Positions 2,876-12,370 of a stretch of 21,352 bases of DNA are shown here, piece after piece. Origin of the DNA: Candidatus Bathyarchaeia archaeon (lineage in GTDB: Archaea > Thermoproteota > Bathyarchaeia > Bathyarchaeales > Bathycorpusculaceae); the NCBI GenBank assembly GCA_037481775.1, contig JBBFKZ010000024.1, positions 1-21,352 on the forward strand, read 5' to 3'. Both the position numbers and the translations under genes were made by a program. Each line of letters begins with the position of its first letter. The stretch's first letter is position 1. The notes below the pieces were generated by a model. The model searched no databases and was not told the DNA's origin. It was given only the letters and a program-made list of their open reading frames with translations.

Positions 2876-3067
2876 TTAGATTACATAACTTGCTGCTGCT
2901 TTTTCGCCAATTTGGTTTTCTGAGATCAATATGTCTAATTCTTTTGTTAATTGATAGAGGTTCAGCCAGTTTTCGATTTTGCTCTGGCGCTCGATTTTTT
3001 TCTCCTCATATAGCAACGGGATTGTGTTCACGAATAACCAGCTGTAGGTTTCTTTCGCTGTTGCCAA
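2876..3067 (-). CDS. Small hypothetical protein (63 aa)
   Basis: Fills the gap between the kinase and purP with no overlap. TTG start preceded by GGGGAGAAGGG; TATA-like TCTATAAC at ~3124-3131 (minus). No recognisable family. Confidence 0.5.
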   Translation of the reverse strand: MATAKETYSWLFVNTIPLLYEEKKIERQSKIENWLNLYQLTKELDILISENQIGEKAAASYVI

Positions 3068-3095
3068 CCCTTCTCCCCGAACGAGAAAAAGGGTT
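3066..3095 (-). promoter_or_regulatory. 13-bp RNA hairpin covering the RBS and start codon of the 63-aa ORF (alternatively a terminator-associated hairpin of the pur cluster)
   Basis: Minus strand AACCCUUUUUCUC-GUUC-GGGGAGAAGGGUU pairs fully, including three G.U pairs. Confidence 0.45.
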
Positions 3096-3153
3096 CGTGT
3101 GCTTTTATTTTCTATGGAAAAAAGTTATAGAAGATTGTTCTATTCTTCCATTT

Positions 3154-4239
3154 TTACGCAAGGACGTCCTGCAGGCGCCCTTGCGCACGGGCTTCCTTCA
3201 ACTCCAACGCTATGCGCCGTCCCATATACATGTCCGCGCCATATCGCAAATAAGCGTAGGGTGATGTGCCTATGCCAACGTTTGTTCCAGCCACGATGCG
3301 TGCTGAAATCTCAAACGTATAAATCTTTAAGTCATCTGTCACAACCGTCTCAAGGCAGAAGGGCCCGATTATTCCTGGCGGCGCCAGTTCCTTCGCTTTC
3401 CTGTGCACGTTTTCACCCATGCGCAAAAATTCAGGCAATAATGACTCACGGAGTACTATTGGGAAGTTGCCTACTATTGTGTAAGTGGGGTTTGCTTCGA
3501 TTTCCAGCTGCTCGCTGGCGGGAATCTTGCCTATCGCGTCGACAGCTGATTCATAGCGCCTATCCACGGCTAGAAGCTCCACGTCGTCCTTGATTATCGA
3601 GCTGAAGTAGCTGGGGTAAACATTCACGCCCAAAGCATATTCCTGCAGATGAACTTTGCCTATATCCTCTTCGCGGAGGAGACCACGCTTCACCATTTCG
3701 CCGAACTTTTTGTAGAATGACTTGGGCGAGTTAGCTAAAAAGTAGCCGCGGCCGCCCTTAGCGCCAGGTAGCTTAGCGATCACCAGACGGTCGATGTCGT
3801 CAGGCGATTTGAACGTCTCAGGCAATCTGAGCCCTGCTTGACGCAGCCACTCTTCCTGCAATTTGCGGTTAGCCTCCCAGTGAAGAAGCTGGCGGTTTCC
3901 GAACATAGGCACATAAAGGCTATCGGTTAACTGTTCAGTGCTCAAGTAAGCGGTAAACGAGCCGTGCGGGATCAGCACGGTGTTTAAGTTGCGAAGCTTC
4001 TCCTGAAGCGCTGGGCTCAGTAATGCCGTGAAGTCCTTAACGAGAATTAGCTCATCTACTAGGGGAAACTTTTTGTAGAGTATTGCATCCTGCTCTTTAC
4101 AGATGCAGACGGTGCGGAAGCCCTCTTCTTTGGCGCCCTTAAAAATGTTCAGGGAAGAATGCGAACCCAAAGTGCCTATGGCCAGTTTATCCACGTCATA
4201 CTTGCTTAGTATCTCAGCTATATCTTTGTCTGTTATCAA
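3154..4239 (-). CDS. purP: Formate--phosphoribosylaminoimidazolecarboxamide ligase (FAICAR synthetase), ATP-grasp
   Basis: GTLGSHSSL, IPHGSF, P-loop PGAKGGRGYF, GNFP, IGPFCLE, FEISARIVAGTN, MGRRIA. Confidence 0.92.
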   Translation of the reverse strand: MITDKDIAEILSKYDVDKLAIGTLGSHSSLNIFKGAKEEGFRTVCICKEQDAILYKKFPLVDELILVKDFTALLSPALQEKLRNLNTVLIPHGSFTAYLSTEQLTDSLYVPMFGNRQLLHWEANRKLQEEWLRQAGLRLPETFKSPDDIDRLVIAKLPGAKGGRGYFLANSPKSFYKKFGEMVKRGLLREEDIGKVHLQEYALGVNVYPSYFSSIIKDDVELLAVDRRYESAVDAIGKIPASEQLEIEANPTYTIVGNFPIVLRESLLPEFLRMGENVHRKAKELAPPGIIGPFCLETVVTDDLKIYTFEISARIVAGTNVGIGTSPYAYLRYGADMYMGRRIALELKEARAQGRLQDVLA

Positions 4240-5333
4240 GTTACCACTTCCACAAGCCTGCCCGCTTTTATGGCCTGCTTTATCTCCATGGCCACGCGTC
4301 TACCTGGACCAACTTCAAAACCATATTTATACTTCATGTAGGGCGAAGTGGGCTCAACACAGGGGCAACCGGGCACGCGAGGGCTGACATCGAAAACGTA
4401 AAACTCCAAGTCCTTGGTTACAGCGCCCTGCAGAGCGAAAAGCCCAACCATGCCAGGCGGATACTCCTTCTTACATACGTCAACAAAGCGTTCTGCAGCG
4501 GTAAAAACCTTCTCCAGCTGGCTTTCCCGCATGGTCGCACCCATATGCCCGATCTCAATGTTCTGTGCAAGTATATTCAGCTCGAGCTGTTCGCTGGCCG
4601 GCAAATCAAGCACTCCGTCAAGGTCTGTTTGCACTCGGCGGTCAAAGCCTAAAAGATCAATCTCGTCAGTTAAGGGCGACCAGAAAAAGTTAGCGTTGAA
4701 CTTGGCGCCTATAACGTACTCCTCTATAACTGCTTGTTTTAAGGCTTCTTCGCTAATTATTCCCCTTTTTATGCGTTCCGCCGCTTTTTTCTCGTACTCT
4801 TCAGGTGATGAGGCGTAAAAGAATGCGCGTTCTATGGCGCGTGCCTTTTCTGGAACCTTGACGATTACCAAGCGGTCAATTTCGCTGGGCGACTTGAAAA
4901 TCTTAGGCGTAGTTATGCCTGCCTTCTGAAGCAGGTACTGCTGGTTCCGCGGAGTGTTGCGCTCTTCCGTTCGAAGCATGTATCTGTTGCCCATGAGGGG
5001 CACAGCGAATTTTTCTTCGATGTTCTCGTAGCCCGCGTACACTGAGAAGGAGCGGTTCGGAACGAAAATAGTGCATAAGGCAGTTAATTTTTCCACGTTA
5101 CTTTCACTGGTTATATCCGAAAACTTGTCTAAGAGGATTATGTGGTCGAAAAGGTTGCGGTAGTATTTGGTGTAGGTTTTATCTCTGCCCTTTTGGCAGA
5201 CCACAACGGTTTCTAAGCCTTCTTGCTTGGCGCCGGAAGCGATCTCAAGCGCTGAGTGCGAGCCTAAAACGCCAATCCGAATACGGTGAGGATCATAACT
5301 TCTTATTACTTCCTGTATTTTTTCAGCCATCAT
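4236..5333 (-). CDS. PurP-like ATP-grasp paralogue lacking the Gly-rich P-loop
   Basis: GVLGSHSALE, VPNRSF, ERAFF in place of GGRGYF, GLFALQ, FDVSPRVPG, GRRVAMEIK. 4-nt overlaps with both neighbours. Confidence 0.88.
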   Translation of the reverse strand: MMAEKIQEVIRSYDPHRIRIGVLGSHSALEIASGAKQEGLETVVVCQKGRDKTYTKYYRNLFDHIILLDKFSDITSESNVEKLTALCTIFVPNRSFSVYAGYENIEEKFAVPLMGNRYMLRTEERNTPRNQQYLLQKAGITTPKIFKSPSEIDRLVIVKVPEKARAIERAFFYASSPEEYEKKAAERIKRGIISEEALKQAVIEEYVIGAKFNANFFWSPLTDEIDLLGFDRRVQTDLDGVLDLPASEQLELNILAQNIEIGHMGATMRESQLEKVFTAAERFVDVCKKEYPPGMVGLFALQGAVTKDLEFYVFDVSPRVPGCPCVEPTSPYMKYKYGFEVGPGRRVAMEIKQAIKAGRLVEVVT

Positions 5334-6388
5334 TTTTCATCGCCCATGTACTCACGGTATATTTTTATTACTTCTGCAAGCCGTGGCGTGTCAAATAACT
5401 TGCGGTTAGTCATCTCGTTAGCCGCTGCCATATACATTTCGCTTATGACAGTTTTAAGTTGCGAATCAAGCCTCGGCGGCTGTGTCTTGCACAGCGACTT
5501 CCAATCTTTCACGCCTTGCTTCTCAGCGGTTCGCTTCGCTTCTTCCACATCTCGGTACCAGCTTGTTTTCTTGTAGAATTGCCGTGCAACCTCCTTGCTT
5601 ACATGCACACCGCCATAAGTGAAGCGGCACTCATCCAATGTGCCGACAACGTCAACAACCATTAAGCGTCTTTCACTGTCGAATGCCAACTCTATTTTTC
5701 CATCCTCATTCTCAAGACCAGCATGAGACGCAATTCGGCTTATCGCATCGTTCACTTTCTGTAGAAGCGTCTTCACCGCTTTGACTTCCTCGTCGGTTAA
5801 GCCTGCAATTTTCTGGGCTTCTTGCCAAGTCACGTAACGGTCAGTTTCTTCAAGTTTAGTGCTGACGTCAAAAATAGGCTTTGTTAACCGCTCGCCAGGA
5901 CGCGGGTAATGATCCAGCCCCAAGTCTGCGATTGTAACTTTTCCCTGTTCGAGGCGCTTGAACACTGAGGAGCCTTCAGGCAGCCCGTTTCTGTATATTA
6001 TTTCAAGTGGTATCAGGAAATTCTTCAGACTTGGCGTGTAAACGCTGTAGTCGTATTCGAGTTTTCCATGCACCACGTGCGCTTCTGGCTTGTAAACGTT
6101 AACCAAGTTGACCTCCATAATGTTGGTGGGCGCGTCGAGCTCTTCGAAAGTAACAAGCCGCCCATTTTTATCAACTAAACCTCTATAGTGTGTTTCAACG
6201 CCTTTGCTTTCCAGCCATTCGAAGCAGTAGGCACCCATCAAGCAGAGCGCCGCGCCCTTCCCATCTATGTGGTCAGGCATCTCGCCCCAGTCGAAAACCG
6301 AATAGCGGTCTGAAAAGTGAAATCGACCTATGCCCATTGCATCGCGTGTCGGCTTCTGAAGTACTTCTAGATCTTTCACGCTGCCCAT
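5330..6388 (-). CDS. purC: Phosphoribosylaminoimidazolesuccinocarboxamide (SAICAR) synthase, long archaeal type
   Basis: MGSVKDL, FSDRYSVFDWG, GKGAAL, IPLEIIYRN, STKLEETD, DGKIELA, VDVVGTLDECRF, SKEVARQ. Start moved to ATG 6388, which follows an SD-like GGAGGGTG (the track starts at 6427). Confidence 0.93.
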   Translation of the reverse strand: MGSVKDLEVLQKPTRDAMGIGRFHFSDRYSVFDWGEMPDHIDGKGAALCLMGAYCFEWLESKGVETHYRGLVDKNGRLVTFEELDAPTNIMEVNLVNVYKPEAHVVHGKLEYDYSVYTPSLKNFLIPLEIIYRNGLPEGSSVFKRLEQGKVTIADLGLDHYPRPGERLTKPIFDVSTKLEETDRYVTWQEAQKIAGLTDEEVKAVKTLLQKVNDAISRIASHAGLENEDGKIELAFDSERRLMVVDVVGTLDECRFTYGGVHVSKEVARQFYKKTSWYRDVEEAKRTAEKQGVKDWKSLCKTQPPRLDSQLKTVISEMYMAAANEMTNRKLFDTPRLAEVIKIYREYMGDEK

Positions 6389-9486: not shown

Positions 9487-9640
9487 TTGAAGTCATCGTC
9501 AGGTCATTTAGCTTACACTGTATAGTGCTTTTGCATTATAATTACTTATCTAAGGGTGAAAGCGGAAAAGGAGGGGTGATTGCCATTGAAACGAAGGGCT
9601 TATAACCAAGCAGAGCGCTTTCCCTTTGTTGTGGATAATA

Positions 9641-9826
9641 ATGTGCGAATTTAACGTCATACTTAATGGGAAAACTCTTTTTAAAGATGTAGTTTACGCG
9701 AAAGCTGAAGGAACAACAGTTACTGCAAGAAGCGTGCTGGGCGAAACAAAGGAATTCAAAAACTGCAAAATCGTCGAAGTCGACGTTAACTCGACTAGGC
9801 TAGTTCTTGAAGCGCTGAAGTCTTAG
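9641..9826 (+). CDS. cooT: CooT family nickel-binding protein
   Basis: 61 aa from ATG 9641 with Met-Cys N-terminus, FKDVV, SVLGE, KIVEVD..RLVL. TATA-like CTTATAAC at ~9598. Confidence 0.85.
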   Translation: MCEFNVILNGKTLFKDVVYAKAEGTTVTARSVLGETKEFKNCKIVEVDVNSTRLVLEALKS

Positions 9827-9979
9827 TCAGAGCACAATGAGCACTCTGCAACCTTCTTCATTTAGGCAGTAAATGGCGTAAAGTACAGGTAATTCGGAAA
9901 GTAGCGAATGCGTTAAATGGGTTTGGCGTAATTATTTATCAGTTTAGGCAAACAGTCACATTGAGCTAAGTGAAACTTC

Positions 9980-10198
9980 ATGCAGAAACTCGTCAAATTA
10001 TGCATCGCCATAGGCGGTTTCCTTATAGTGACAGGCTTAATTTTGACAGGCACAGTTTTCCTCATCTTGTCAAACATAATAGATGTAACCGTTTTTACAG
10101 ATCAAATAACCATGGCTTTGTTGACGCTGATGTTCTTGGCAGTCGCCGCGGCAGACATAATTGTAGCAGCAATCCTCCTCTTAAAGAGGCGAAAATAG
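9980..10198 (+). CDS. Small two-TM membrane protein (72 aa), similar to the C-terminal tail of the downstream APC permease
   Basis: Two hydrophobic helices and a basic C-terminus; IAIGG..G..T..L..NII pattern shared with the permease tail. Confidence 0.8.
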   Translation: MQKLVKLCIAIGGFLIVTGLILTGTVFLILSNIIDVTVFTDQITMALLTLMFLAVAAADIIVAAILLLKRRK

Positions 10199-10414
10199 AT
10201 GGCTGTCAGAAAAATTTCAAAGGCAGTTGGTTTGGCACAAGCAGTTATAGGCGGATCAGCAATAGTTTTCGCTTTCCTCTTGTTCTACAACGTACTAGGG
10301 CTACAGGAGATTATAGGTGCTTCTGAAACGCGCATTGGACTTTATCTGTGGGTTCTTATAATTTTTGGCTTATTATCTACAATAAGCGGCTTGCTTCTTT
10401 TTTATGAGCAATAA
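10199..10414 (+). CDS. Small two-TM membrane protein (71 aa)
   Basis: Start abuts the previous stop (TAG-ATG); two hydrophobic helices ending GLLSTISGLLLF. Confidence 0.8.
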   Translation: MAVRKISKAVGLAQAVIGGSAIVFAFLLFYNVLGLQEIIGASETRIGLYLWVLIIFGLLSTISGLLLFYEQ

Positions 10415-10430
10415 ACTTGGGTGAAACCTT

Positions 10431-11903
10431 ATGAATGAACCGCACTTGAAAAGGAACTTGGGGCTTGTACGCACGACAATGCTGGGTGTAGGTGGCTCAC
10501 TCAGCGCAGCTAATTTTGTGATAATCGGTGAAGCCGCGGGAATGGCCGGCTACGCCATCGTCCCGATTGTCATCGTCTGCGGCATCTTAAGCCTTTTAAC
10601 AATGTTCAGTTATGCTGAGCTTGGCACGGCGATTCCGCTTGCTGGCGGCGAGTATACGTTTTCCAAAGTGGCCTACGGCGGATTCACCAGTTTCCTCACA
10701 GGCTGGTTTGAGTGGCTCAGCAACATGTTTTACACGGCGTTATCAGCCATAGGCTTCGCTTACGTTGTTTCTTACCTTTTCCCACAAATCAACATACCCT
10801 TAACCGCAGTGGTAGTGGTAGCATTTTTCGCAGTAATCAACTTGATAGGCACAAAAGAAACCGCAACAGCAGAAACCATCATAACCATCATAGTTCTCGC
10901 CATACTAGCCATATTCGTCATAGGCAGCTGGTCTTTTATTCAAGGCCCCCCCGCGGAGCAGTCAACCTCGCCGATAGGCATACTGGGCATCTTCGCTGCC
11001 ACCGCATACCTATTCGAGCTCTACCTAGGCGCAGAAGCTGTCGCGGCGGCACAAGCGGAAGTGAAAAATCCTGGAAAAAACATTCCACGCGCCATAGTGC
11101 TTTCAGCCTTGATTTTGATTGCACTGTACACAAGCGTTGTGGTTGTTGCTGTAAGCGTAGTTCCGCCAGAAGTTCTCAGTCATCAACAATCACCAATCGC
11201 GTTTGTTGCAGAACAAACCATGGGACCTGCAGGAGCAGTGCTGGTTACAATAGGCTTGGCCATTACAGGCTTAGCGGCAACCAACGAAGCAATTATGGCG
11301 CAGTCACATGTGCTTTACGCCATGAGCAGAGATGGCTACCTACCTAAAGGCCTCTGCAAAGTTCACAAGCGCTTCTGCACACCACACGTTGCGATTATTG
11401 TAGGCGCGGTTTTCACCGCAATTTTCGCCGCGACTGGCCTAGTGAATTTTGTGGTTTACGCAGTTAACCTCGGCTTTATAATAGGCTTCTCCATTGTGAA
11501 TTTGGCGGTGATTAGGCTTAGGAAACGAGCGCCGCACTTGAAAAGACCGTTCAAGACACCGCTTTATCCGCTGACGCCTATTGCGGGAATAGCGGCGTCC
11601 ATTTTTCTGATTTTCTTCATAGAACCTTCCGTTTTGATTTTGGGTTTTGAACTGGTTGTTGTCGCATTACTGATTTACTACATCAGAATGGTGGGATATC
11701 ACCGCATTCGCATAGCCTTCGGAGGAATAAGCTTGGGTTTAGGCGCTTTTGTATGCTTCACAGCGTATTTATTGGGAACAAACATTATTGTGTTGCATGG
11801 TGCTTCGCAAGAGTTGTCAACGCTCGTTTTTTCTGTACTTCTAGCAGTGGGTGCAATCCAAATTCTGGCGGGCATATTGAATCTACTTGCACCTGACCAT
11901 TAA
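10431..11903 (+). CDS. APC family amino acid permease with an extra C-terminal two-helix hairpin
   Basis: LKRNLG, SYAELGTAIPLAGGEY, EVKNPGKNIPRAI, LYAMSRDGYLP, TPHVAI, RPFKTPLYP; GGTGA SD. Confidence 0.93.
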   Translation: MNEPHLKRNLGLVRTTMLGVGGSLSAANFVIIGEAAGMAGYAIVPIVIVCGILSLLTMFSYAELGTAIPLAGGEYTFSKVAYGGFTSFLTGWFEWLSNMFYTALSAIGFAYVVSYLFPQINIPLTAVVVVAFFAVINLIGTKETATAETIITIIVLAILAIFVIGSWSFIQGPPAEQSTSPIGILGIFAATAYLFELYLGAEAVAAAQAEVKNPGKNIPRAIVLSALILIALYTSVVVVAVSVVPPEVLSHQQSPIAFVAEQTMGPAGAVLVTIGLAITGLAATNEAIMAQSHVLYAMSRDGYLPKGLCKVHKRFCTPHVAIIVGAVFTAIFAATGLVNFVVYAVNLGFIIGFSIVNLAVIRLRKRAPHLKRPFKTPLYPLTPIAGIAASIFLIFFIEPSVLILGFELVVVALLIYYIRMVGYHRIRIAFGGISLGLGAFVCFTAYLLGTNIIVLHGASQELSTLVFSVLLAVGAIQILAGILNLLAPDH

Positions 11904-12095
11904 AAAATGTCAATTCTCAGCGAACATAAACTCCTGTGTCAGCAAACCTTAATTAATGGCACCTACTGCTTTTTGGGTCGTATGCGGCGCAAACGTAAGA
12001 AATCTTATATTAACTGTGAACCTCCAACCATTGATGTAGACAACTTGGTTATTGACACTACTCGCAAAGAGCGCTTTCAAATTTTTGAAGCACTG

Positions 12096-12284
12096 GTGGC
12101 GATCCGAAAATACCTTATAGCTTTGCTCCTTTTCTCAGGTGGGTTGGCAACGATCTTTTTTATACAATTTCTAATGGACATCCAAGTATTTTCATCTCCG
12201 ACAAGCCTTGTCGCGCTGGCTGCTACGGGTGCCTTAGGCGTAGTTAACATTATTTGCGGCCTACTTTTGCTTGGTTCAGAATAG
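12096..12284 (+). CDS. Small two-TM membrane protein (62 aa), apparent paralogue of 10199..10414
   Basis: Re-started at GTG 12096 (MAIRKYL...) to match MAVRK of 10199; ends GVVNIICGLLLL. The track's 11907 start adds 63 codons over AT-rich promoter-like DNA. Confidence 0.7.
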   Translation: MAIRKYLIALLLFSGGLATIFFIQFLMDIQVFSSPTSLVALAATGALGVVNIICGLLLLGSE

Positions 12285-12370
12285 CCATCGTACTTTTCCA
12301 ACAAGCAACAAACTAGGGCGAATTTTTCTAAGAAAAGAATCTGAGGGAATGGAGCTATAAAAATTAGATC

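Follow-up and report, generated by a model that had tools for sequence, protein, structure and literature searches.

Are the small membrane proteins encoded around an amino-acid permease of a Bathyarchaeia genome its subunits, and is the C-terminal end of that permease a built-in copy of one of them? The question is raised by contig JBBFKZ010000024.1 of the Candidatus Bathyarchaeia archaeon assembly GCA_037481775.1, of which we analyzed a stretch of 21,352 nucleotides (nt), hereafter the window. Its + strand carries four tightly packed open reading frames (ORFs), arranged head to tail in the order A, B, permease, D. The genes A, B and D each encode a small two-helix membrane protein, and the permease, a member of the APC superfamily, ends in a further two-helix hairpin, which we refer to as the tail. 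We propose that the four genes constitute a cassette for a heteromeric APC amino-acid transporter, in which the tail docks B, A packs on B, and D completes a bundle that stabilizes or regulates the transporter. We assign this reading a probability of about 0.55. A sequence-only reading of the locus had listed the four ORFs, and these, together with the strings quoted from them, were present where it had placed them.

The permease gene (10431-11903, + strand) encodes 490 amino acids (aa) and comprises a core of 12 transmembrane (TM) helices (10431-11675, residues 1-415) and the tail (11676-11903, residues 416-490), which contains TM13 and TM14 and is followed by the stop codon. Pfam AA_permease_2 (PF13520) matched residues 10-409 with an E-value of 7.8e-51 and 173.8 bits against a cut-off of 27, and AA_permease (PF00324) scored 149.4 against a cut-off of 24.6. 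The best sequence match in the PDB was GkApcT (5oqt_A, E 4.1e-40), which covered residues 6-418. The AlphaFold2 (AF2) model of the permease, with a predicted local distance difference test score (pLDDT) of 82.2 and a predicted template modelling score of 0.79, contained 12 core helices and two extra ones. In VIA-align, residues 7-422 of this model matched 6f34_A with a Z-score of 47.9 and a root-mean-square deviation of 2.2 over 408 aligned residues; the Z-scores for mouse CAT1 and ApcT were 46.5 and 43.4, respectively. The protein is an APC superfamily amino-acid permease with the 12-TM LeuT/APC fold, and its core is closest to GkApcT, ApcT (MJ0609) and the CAT branch. Because none of the curated cut-offs of the NCBIfam subfamilies was reached (TIGR00909, 263.4 against 556.8; BcaP, 214.9 against 690), its substrate cannot be assigned.

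The two tail helices occupy residues 423-449 and 460-486 of the AF2 model, with pLDDT blocks of 75-92. Pfam and NCBIfam contained no domain matching residues 420-490. Among the 50 structure alignments listed, none extended beyond model residue 438, and the tail therefore has no counterpart in the listed structures. A search of PDB sequences with the tail profile gave chance-level matches, the best of which was a membrane segment of an NMDA receptor (E 0.043). The APC relatives of the permease from outside the Bathyarchaeia aligned at most to residue 434 and thus lack the tail, and the best-matching loci elsewhere were all in metagenome-assembled genomes of Bathyarchaeia. An origin of the tail as a copy of a core hairpin was rejected, as comparison of the tail with 10 core windows gave at most 1.2%.

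Gene A (9980-10198, + strand) encodes a 72-aa two-helix membrane protein. Basic residues occur at both ends, from which its N- and C-termini are probably both cytoplasmic. The stop codon of A directly abuts the ATG of gene B (10199-10414, + strand), whose 71-aa product is likewise a two-helix membrane protein and which ends 16 nt before the permease start. Gene D (11982-12284, + strand) encodes 100 aa with two membrane helices, counted from an ATG that its relatives share. The ratio of nonsynonymous to synonymous substitution rates (dN/dS), calculated against six relatives, was 0.19-0.44 for A, 0.10-0.23 for B (five of the six pairs) and 0.09-0.23 for D. Thus, 17 of the 18 pairs fell between 0.09 and 0.44, the remaining one being saturated, and A, B and D are accordingly real genes under purifying selection.

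The three small proteins are without named families. At E ≤ 0.1, Pfam and NCBIfam yielded none for A, B or D except a chance-level NepI match for B, and a PDB sequence search with the B profile returned no match. In the ESM Atlas, D matched Bathyarchaeota clusters without a name and one DUF3493 row at 0.80, below the level taken as a lead. When family members were scanned singly against Pfam (E ≤ 1), the sub-threshold matches were scattered and included CD20, Cation_ATPase_C, Phage_holin_3_6 (E ≥ 0.11 throughout; four of the 24 members scanned for A, eight of 26 for the tail and one of 25 for D) and DUF308 (2 of 24 A members, best E 0.032; the window's own B at E 0.4). We take the scattered matches to reflect a generic likeness among hairpins; a very remote link may underlie those to Phage_holin_3_6 and DUF308.

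The start of D lies upstream of the one first proposed for it. In the sequence-only reading, D was a 62-aa protein beginning at position 12096, which is an internal GTG of D. The stretch upstream of 12096 is conserved in relatives (111 aligned residues with 75% identity in locus L001), so this start is not borne out; the one common to the relatives is the ATG at 11982, which opens a run of basic residues. The frame is open for 25 codons further (11907-11981), from an ATG located 4 nt after the permease stop. Since these codons are alignable in close relatives only, the exact start, 11907 or 11982, is uncertain. In the AF2 model of D (pLDDT 76.9), residues 1-18 form a basic, unstructured N-terminus. 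Residues 19-65 make up a long helix that starts as a conserved cytoplasmic segment and continues as the first membrane helix; the second membrane helix spans residues 73-98. The distribution of basic residues suggests that both ends of all four hairpins are cytoplasmic.

The relationship among the hairpins was evaluated at two levels of sensitivity. Single-sequence local alignments were scored against 500 composition shuffles. In these, A aligned to the tail with a score of 60 against 28.5 ± 5.1 (z 6.2; none of the 500 shuffles reached 60), and B aligned to the tail with a z-score of 3.9 (1 of 500 shuffles). The alignment of B with the 62-aa form of D was not significant (z 1.2; 70 of 500), and the A-B (z −0.3), A-D (z 1.8) and tail-D (z 1.3) alignments were all within noise. 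Of the two pairings that had been drawn from the sequence alone, single sequences support that of A with the tail and not that of B with the 62-aa protein; neither pairing is the centre of likeness, which the profiles described next place at B.

Profiles built from 24-39 orthologues each were then compared using hhalign. The tail-B comparison gave a probability of 94.5% (E 7.9e-8) over 70 columns and the B-A comparison 92.2% over 67 columns. A more diverse B profile matched A at 95.1% (69 columns), the tail at 75% (60 columns) and D at 29% (24 columns). The values for the remaining pairs were 69% for B-D (41 columns, covering the second helix and loop only), 33% for tail-A (62 columns), 18.5% for tail-D (42 columns) and 6.8% for A-D (37 columns). 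Three types of control, each preserving composition and hydrophobic pattern, gave 8% or less: ten 70-aa windows of the permease core gave at most 4.5% and at most 23 columns in 40 comparisons; reversed profiles gave at most 1.6% in nine comparisons; and column shuffles (five pairs, 40 each) scored at most 18.7, with a probability of at most 8%, against observed scores of 23.4-42.9. The claim that the four hairpins are related beyond composition thus withstood profile comparison, the link to D being the weakest.

Sequences of intermediate character were also found. Single ORFs in distant loci matched several of the hairpin hidden Markov models (HMMs); for example, the ORF at L097 7873-8109 matched A (9e-10), the tail (3e-7), D (1e-5) and B (6.5e-3), these E-values having been obtained on a small set of ORFs. 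When run against whole genomes, the tail profile matched free ORFs of 74-92 aa as well, such as one in genome G417 (E 3.2e-14). According to these comparisons, the likeness of the four hairpins centres on B; A, B and the tail are paralogues, with the tail as a fused copy; and D is probably paralogous to them through its second helix. Searching 1.84 billion proteins with the B profile (E ≤ 1e-3) returned 117 representative clusters at 50% identity, of 29-104 aa. Fused long forms of B were considered and dismissed, none of the 117 matches exceeding 104 aa. Long open frames encountered in the whole-genome scans were likewise rejected as fusions, being read-throughs of stops or overlaps in other frames.

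The gene order recurs outside the window. Among 35 Bathyarchaeia loci found via the permease (L001-L034 and L036), 31 carry A, 32 carry B and 30 carry D, and the genes follow the order seen in the window. Contig ends cut three of the four loci missing A, all three missing B and four of the five missing D. The exception not cut by a contig end, L008, is without A and has a weak D-like match on the other strand only. We also fetched 25 loci through B, including a distant subgroup. In all 25, B adjoins an APC permease; the tail was detected in 23 by local HMM and, by whole-genome scan, in the genomes of the other two (G155 and G288). In six distant loci, D and an opposite-strand A-like gene lie approximately 1.7 kb downstream of the permease, past an unrelated gene for a 541-aa protein. 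The B-permease unit occurs in tandem duplicate in some genomes. In L022 (3001-6384), tailed permeases at 3001-4452 and 4530-6044 are followed by a single D gene (6082-6384), and in G564:C7 (889-4929) B occurs at 889 and again at 2890, with tails at 2372 and 4372. Across deep divergence, only A-B-permease-D persists, the other neighbours being common to at most 13 close loci.

At the level of genomes, B was found in 16 of 401 sampled from the phylum, and the 15 strong matches among them all belong to the order of the window. For 251 genomes of this order, tallied at E ≤ 1e-3, the counts were 101 for the tail, 102 for B, 94 for D and 90 for A. One or more parts were found in 108 genomes, the tail together with B in 97 and all four in 74. 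Of the 106 genomes with the tail or B, 97 had both and nine had one alone; A and D without the tail or B occurred in two, whose completeness is 69% and 88%. Occurrence within families is patchy (f1, 31 of 97; f2, 2 of 47; f4, 3 of 25; f5, 52-54 of 60), indicating that the parts were gained or lost together. These data bear out the conserved co-occurrence for which synteny had been suggested as a check, and the cassette has so far been seen only in one order of Bathyarchaeia. Genome G000 encodes just one other APC paralogue (G000:C2, corresponding to L107 2307-3605 on the − strand), a 432-aa protein with 29% identity and no tail; no A, B or D family gene is found beside it. A 71-aa two-helix ORF at L107 5196-5411 is unrelated to the hairpin families.

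We next consider whether the parts are predicted to interact. One four-chain ESMFold2 prediction combined the permease with A, D and B, using a separate alignment for each chain, and had B as the scored partner. The interface score ipSAE (interaction prediction score from aligned errors) of B was 0.61, 0.67 and 0.66 over three runs (median 0.66), and the best of three controls was 0.00. Of 80 solved complexes, 58 attained the ipSAE pass mark, as did 2 of 110 mismatched pairs; these rates apply only roughly to this model with its own alignments and four chains. The three runs had at least 96% of contacts in common, the pLDDT of the partner was at least 74, and the predicted interface comprised 78-86 contacts. 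When the permease was swapped for an unrelated protein, with A and D still present, the ipSAE of B was 0.00.

In the model, all permease contacts named for B lie within residues 426-487, that is, within the tail. The second helix of B is placed against TM13 and its first helix against TM14, and B also contacts residues 17-44 of A. We infer that the contact pairs fit antiparallel neighbouring helices at matching membrane depth. The binding of B to the tail and to A is supported as a prediction. A module docked on the transporter via its tail, as the sequence-only reading had envisaged, is therefore partly reproduced: the model places B on TM13/TM14 and on A, and names no contact to D. The same reading had entertained a sensing role, to which nothing in the analysis points.

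The proposed mechanism is as follows. The 12-TM core would move an amino acid, and TM13-14, as a built-in copy of the small subunit, would provide the docking face. B, the free-standing paralogue, would pack on TM13/TM14, and A would pack on B. D, which is more distantly paralogous and has a juxtamembrane helix in the cytoplasm, would probably complete a peripheral bundle of up to eight helices. By analogy with DUF485 and DUF4212 on SSS permeases, the bundle would most likely stabilize or regulate the transporter, and the conserved cytoplasmic part of D would be the likeliest regulatory handle. In a bolder version, the four hairpins would form a second eight-helix membrane domain, yielding a 20-helix transporter or transceptor that is gated via the cytoplasmic helix of D and arose by repeated hairpin duplication and one fusion. 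We consider this version unlikely. If it is true, the gated 20-helix assembly would be a mode of APC construction and regulation without counterpart among solved structures.

Several observations weigh against the subunit cassette. With respect to the model, D was unscored and none of the contacts named for B is to D. The docking controls were unrelated natural proteins that were possibly not membrane hairpins, which leaves room for generic hydrophobic packing, and conserved interface residues are not independent support because the same alignments fed the model. With respect to relatedness, the D link is the weakest, with one helix covered and the low tail-D and A-D values given above; the hairpin profiles are shallow, with an effective number of sequences (Neff) of about 3-4; and the B profile, at E ≤ 1e-3 in the 1.84 billion proteins, reached no permease-length protein, so that the tail-B link needs profile-profile methods. 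As for inheritance, 34 of the 108 genomes miss at least one part at E ≤ 1e-3, and five have just B and the tail; in some genomes, A and D are thus dispensable, have diverged or were missed by the assembly. Because related genomes are not independent of one another, the counts of co-occurrence make the evidence look stronger than it is. Finally, L093 and L095 have B just past the permease end, on the opposite strand.

Some of these observations would suit other explanations. The small proteins could be transient helpers or regulators rather than permanent subunits, acting in insertion or folding of the 14-TM permease or as MgtS-like on/off switches. Co-occurrence and adjacency apply equally to such helpers, the 34 incomplete genomes fit dispensable modulators, and MgtS changed the stability and total uptake of GkApcT just modestly according to the available text of that report (PMC5803215). 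However, the predicted interface is large and reproducible, and a tail and B found together in 97 genomes and singly in nine fit obligate partners better; we regard transient helpers as unlikely. It is a still slimmer prospect that the small genes are linked to the permease in an operon yet act apart from it, for example as a small oligomeric assembly of their own (a pore, a holin-like protein or an ion leak) that does not bind the transporter. The recurrent Phage_holin_3_6 matches, far below cut-off, and the distance of about 1.7 kb between the permease and D and A in the six distant loci would be accommodated by a separate assembly. By contrast, one of the four paralogues belongs to the permease polypeptide itself, B adjoins the permease in every B-fetched locus, the confident placement of B is lost on replacing the permease in the model, and the holin matches are consistent with generic hairpin similarity.

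The likeness of the hairpins, as distinct from their partnership, might also have arisen by convergence, through small-residue packing motifs in hydrophobic helices, in which case the genes could still be partners. Single-sequence comparisons are not significant for four of the six pairs, the A-D and tail-D links are weak, Neff is low, and HMMER with the B profile reaches neither the tail, A nor D in the 1.84-billion-protein library. Convergence is nonetheless improbable in our view: the alignments run end to end and in register over 60-70 columns, far above the three composition-keeping controls, intermediate sequences match three or four hairpin HMMs, and size and inferred topology are common to all hairpins. 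Lastly, the small ORFs, given their shortness, close packing and kinship with the permease tail, could be non-functional remnants of a larger transporter gene that broke up or was split. Selection and conservation contradict this scarcely credible alternative, as dN/dS is 0.09-0.44, the ORFs are separate and of conserved length in about 90-100 of the 251 genomes, B alone forms 117 clusters at 50% identity, and no fused long form occurs among the B-profile matches.

The heteromeric APC transporter that we favour can be set beside known systems. Compared with GkApcT, ApcT and the CATs, the Bathyarchaeia permease has the same 12-TM APC core by sequence and fold and differs by the hairpin after the core, residues 439-490 being uncovered in the 50 alignments listed. 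The SLC7-SLC3 transporters (with 4F2hc or rBAT), structures of which are among the fold matches of the permease, likewise combine an APC-fold light chain with a separate membrane-anchored subunit. The SLC3 heavy chain, which is disulfide-linked, consists of one membrane helix and a large ectodomain; it bears no relationship to the hairpins, and the Bathyarchaeia small proteins have no ectodomain. In TRAP transporters, a small membrane subunit of the DctQ type, which is a peripheral scaffold, is either separate from the large subunit or fused to it. The small subunit is thus both free and fused there too, but the fold and family are others, and fused and free copies coexist in the Bathyarchaeia cassette. 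The 14-TM CATs (SLC7A1-4) also have an extra helix pair. In mouse CAT1 it is TM11-12, inside the chain, with a role given as unknown in the accessible part of the report (PMC13022406); CAT1 chains align to model residues 8-420 only, and the Bathyarchaeia extra pair is C-terminal.

The closest analogue in mode of action, though not in family membership, is probably provided by DUF485 (YjcH), found with ActP-like permeases, and DUF4212, found with SSS symporters. These are small proteins of approximately two helices encoded directly upstream of the permease; mutant fitness shows that they are needed for permease function, and they were interpreted as extra subunits (bioRxiv 10.1101/072470, in the text available). 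As in the Bathyarchaeia loci (B adjacent in 25 of 25; tail and B together in 97 of the 106 genomes with either), the gene for a two-helix protein lies beside that of a LeuT-fold permease and is co-inherited with it. The partner there belongs to the SSS family and here to the APC family proper; there, as far as the preprint's available text describes, one small protein accompanies each permease, whereas here there are three paralogues and a fused copy. PF04341 (DUF485) and PF13937 (DUF4212) gave no match at E ≤ 1 in 24 A, 26 tail and 25 D members, and neither was among the matches listed (25 of 47 families) for 39 B members.

As precedent for a small partner of an APC transporter, the sequence-only reading had cited MgtS bound to GkApcT. 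This example holds insofar as MgtS is a small membrane protein on the periphery of an APC transporter, and is weaker than implied. According to the available text (PMC5803215), MgtS is an E. coli protein with one helix, which came through purification together with the Geobacillus GkApcT expressed in that host; an adventitious partner, it packs on TM5 with a sterol and has a stabilizing effect. By contrast, A, B and D are two-helix proteins encoded beside the permease, and B is predicted on TM13-14 (426-487), not TM5. The system had also been called apparently undescribed. Open-access papers and preprints contained no description of this cassette that we could find, yet the SSS family offers known examples of LeuT-fold permeases with small two-helix subunits (bioRxiv 10.1101/072470, available text). 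The novelty is the combination of three paralogous subunits and a fused copy on an APC transporter, small membrane subunits as such being already known.

In prokaryotes, APC-family amino-acid transporters are generally regarded as 12-TM proteins of a single chain, the heteromeric forms being known from animals, where SLC7 pairs with SLC3. If the proposed heteromeric transporter is borne out, the cassette would be a natural prokaryotic model for the tuning of a LeuT-fold transporter by peripheral helices and a clear case of subunit evolution through duplication and fusion. It would also give a likely role to three small membrane protein families without names, of which B alone comprises 117 clusters at 50% identity. 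These families occur in Bathyarchaeia, archaea that are abundant in sediments and for which amino acids and peptides are presumed to be part of the diet.

Some minor features of the loci were recorded as well. A CooT-like ORF of 66 aa (9626-9826, + strand), whose match to PF10133 exceeds the cut-off (E 2.7e-8), precedes A by 153 nt and is probably outside the module; it and a 221-aa ORF were rejected as module parts, being common to just 13 and 11 close loci, respectively. The 541-aa protein between the permease and D in the distant subgroup (L097 5740-7365, − strand) looks coiled-coil-rich, and its C-terminus resembles, by eye, an ORF fragment at L107 1-297; this fragment and the tail-less APC paralogue in G000 are approximately 2 kb apart. 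In the window, inspection by eye revealed an AT-rich octamer at 9932-9939, 41-48 nt 5′ of the ATG of A, which may be an archaeal TATA box, and T-runs 3′ of the stop of D (approximately 12296-12330), which may be a terminator.

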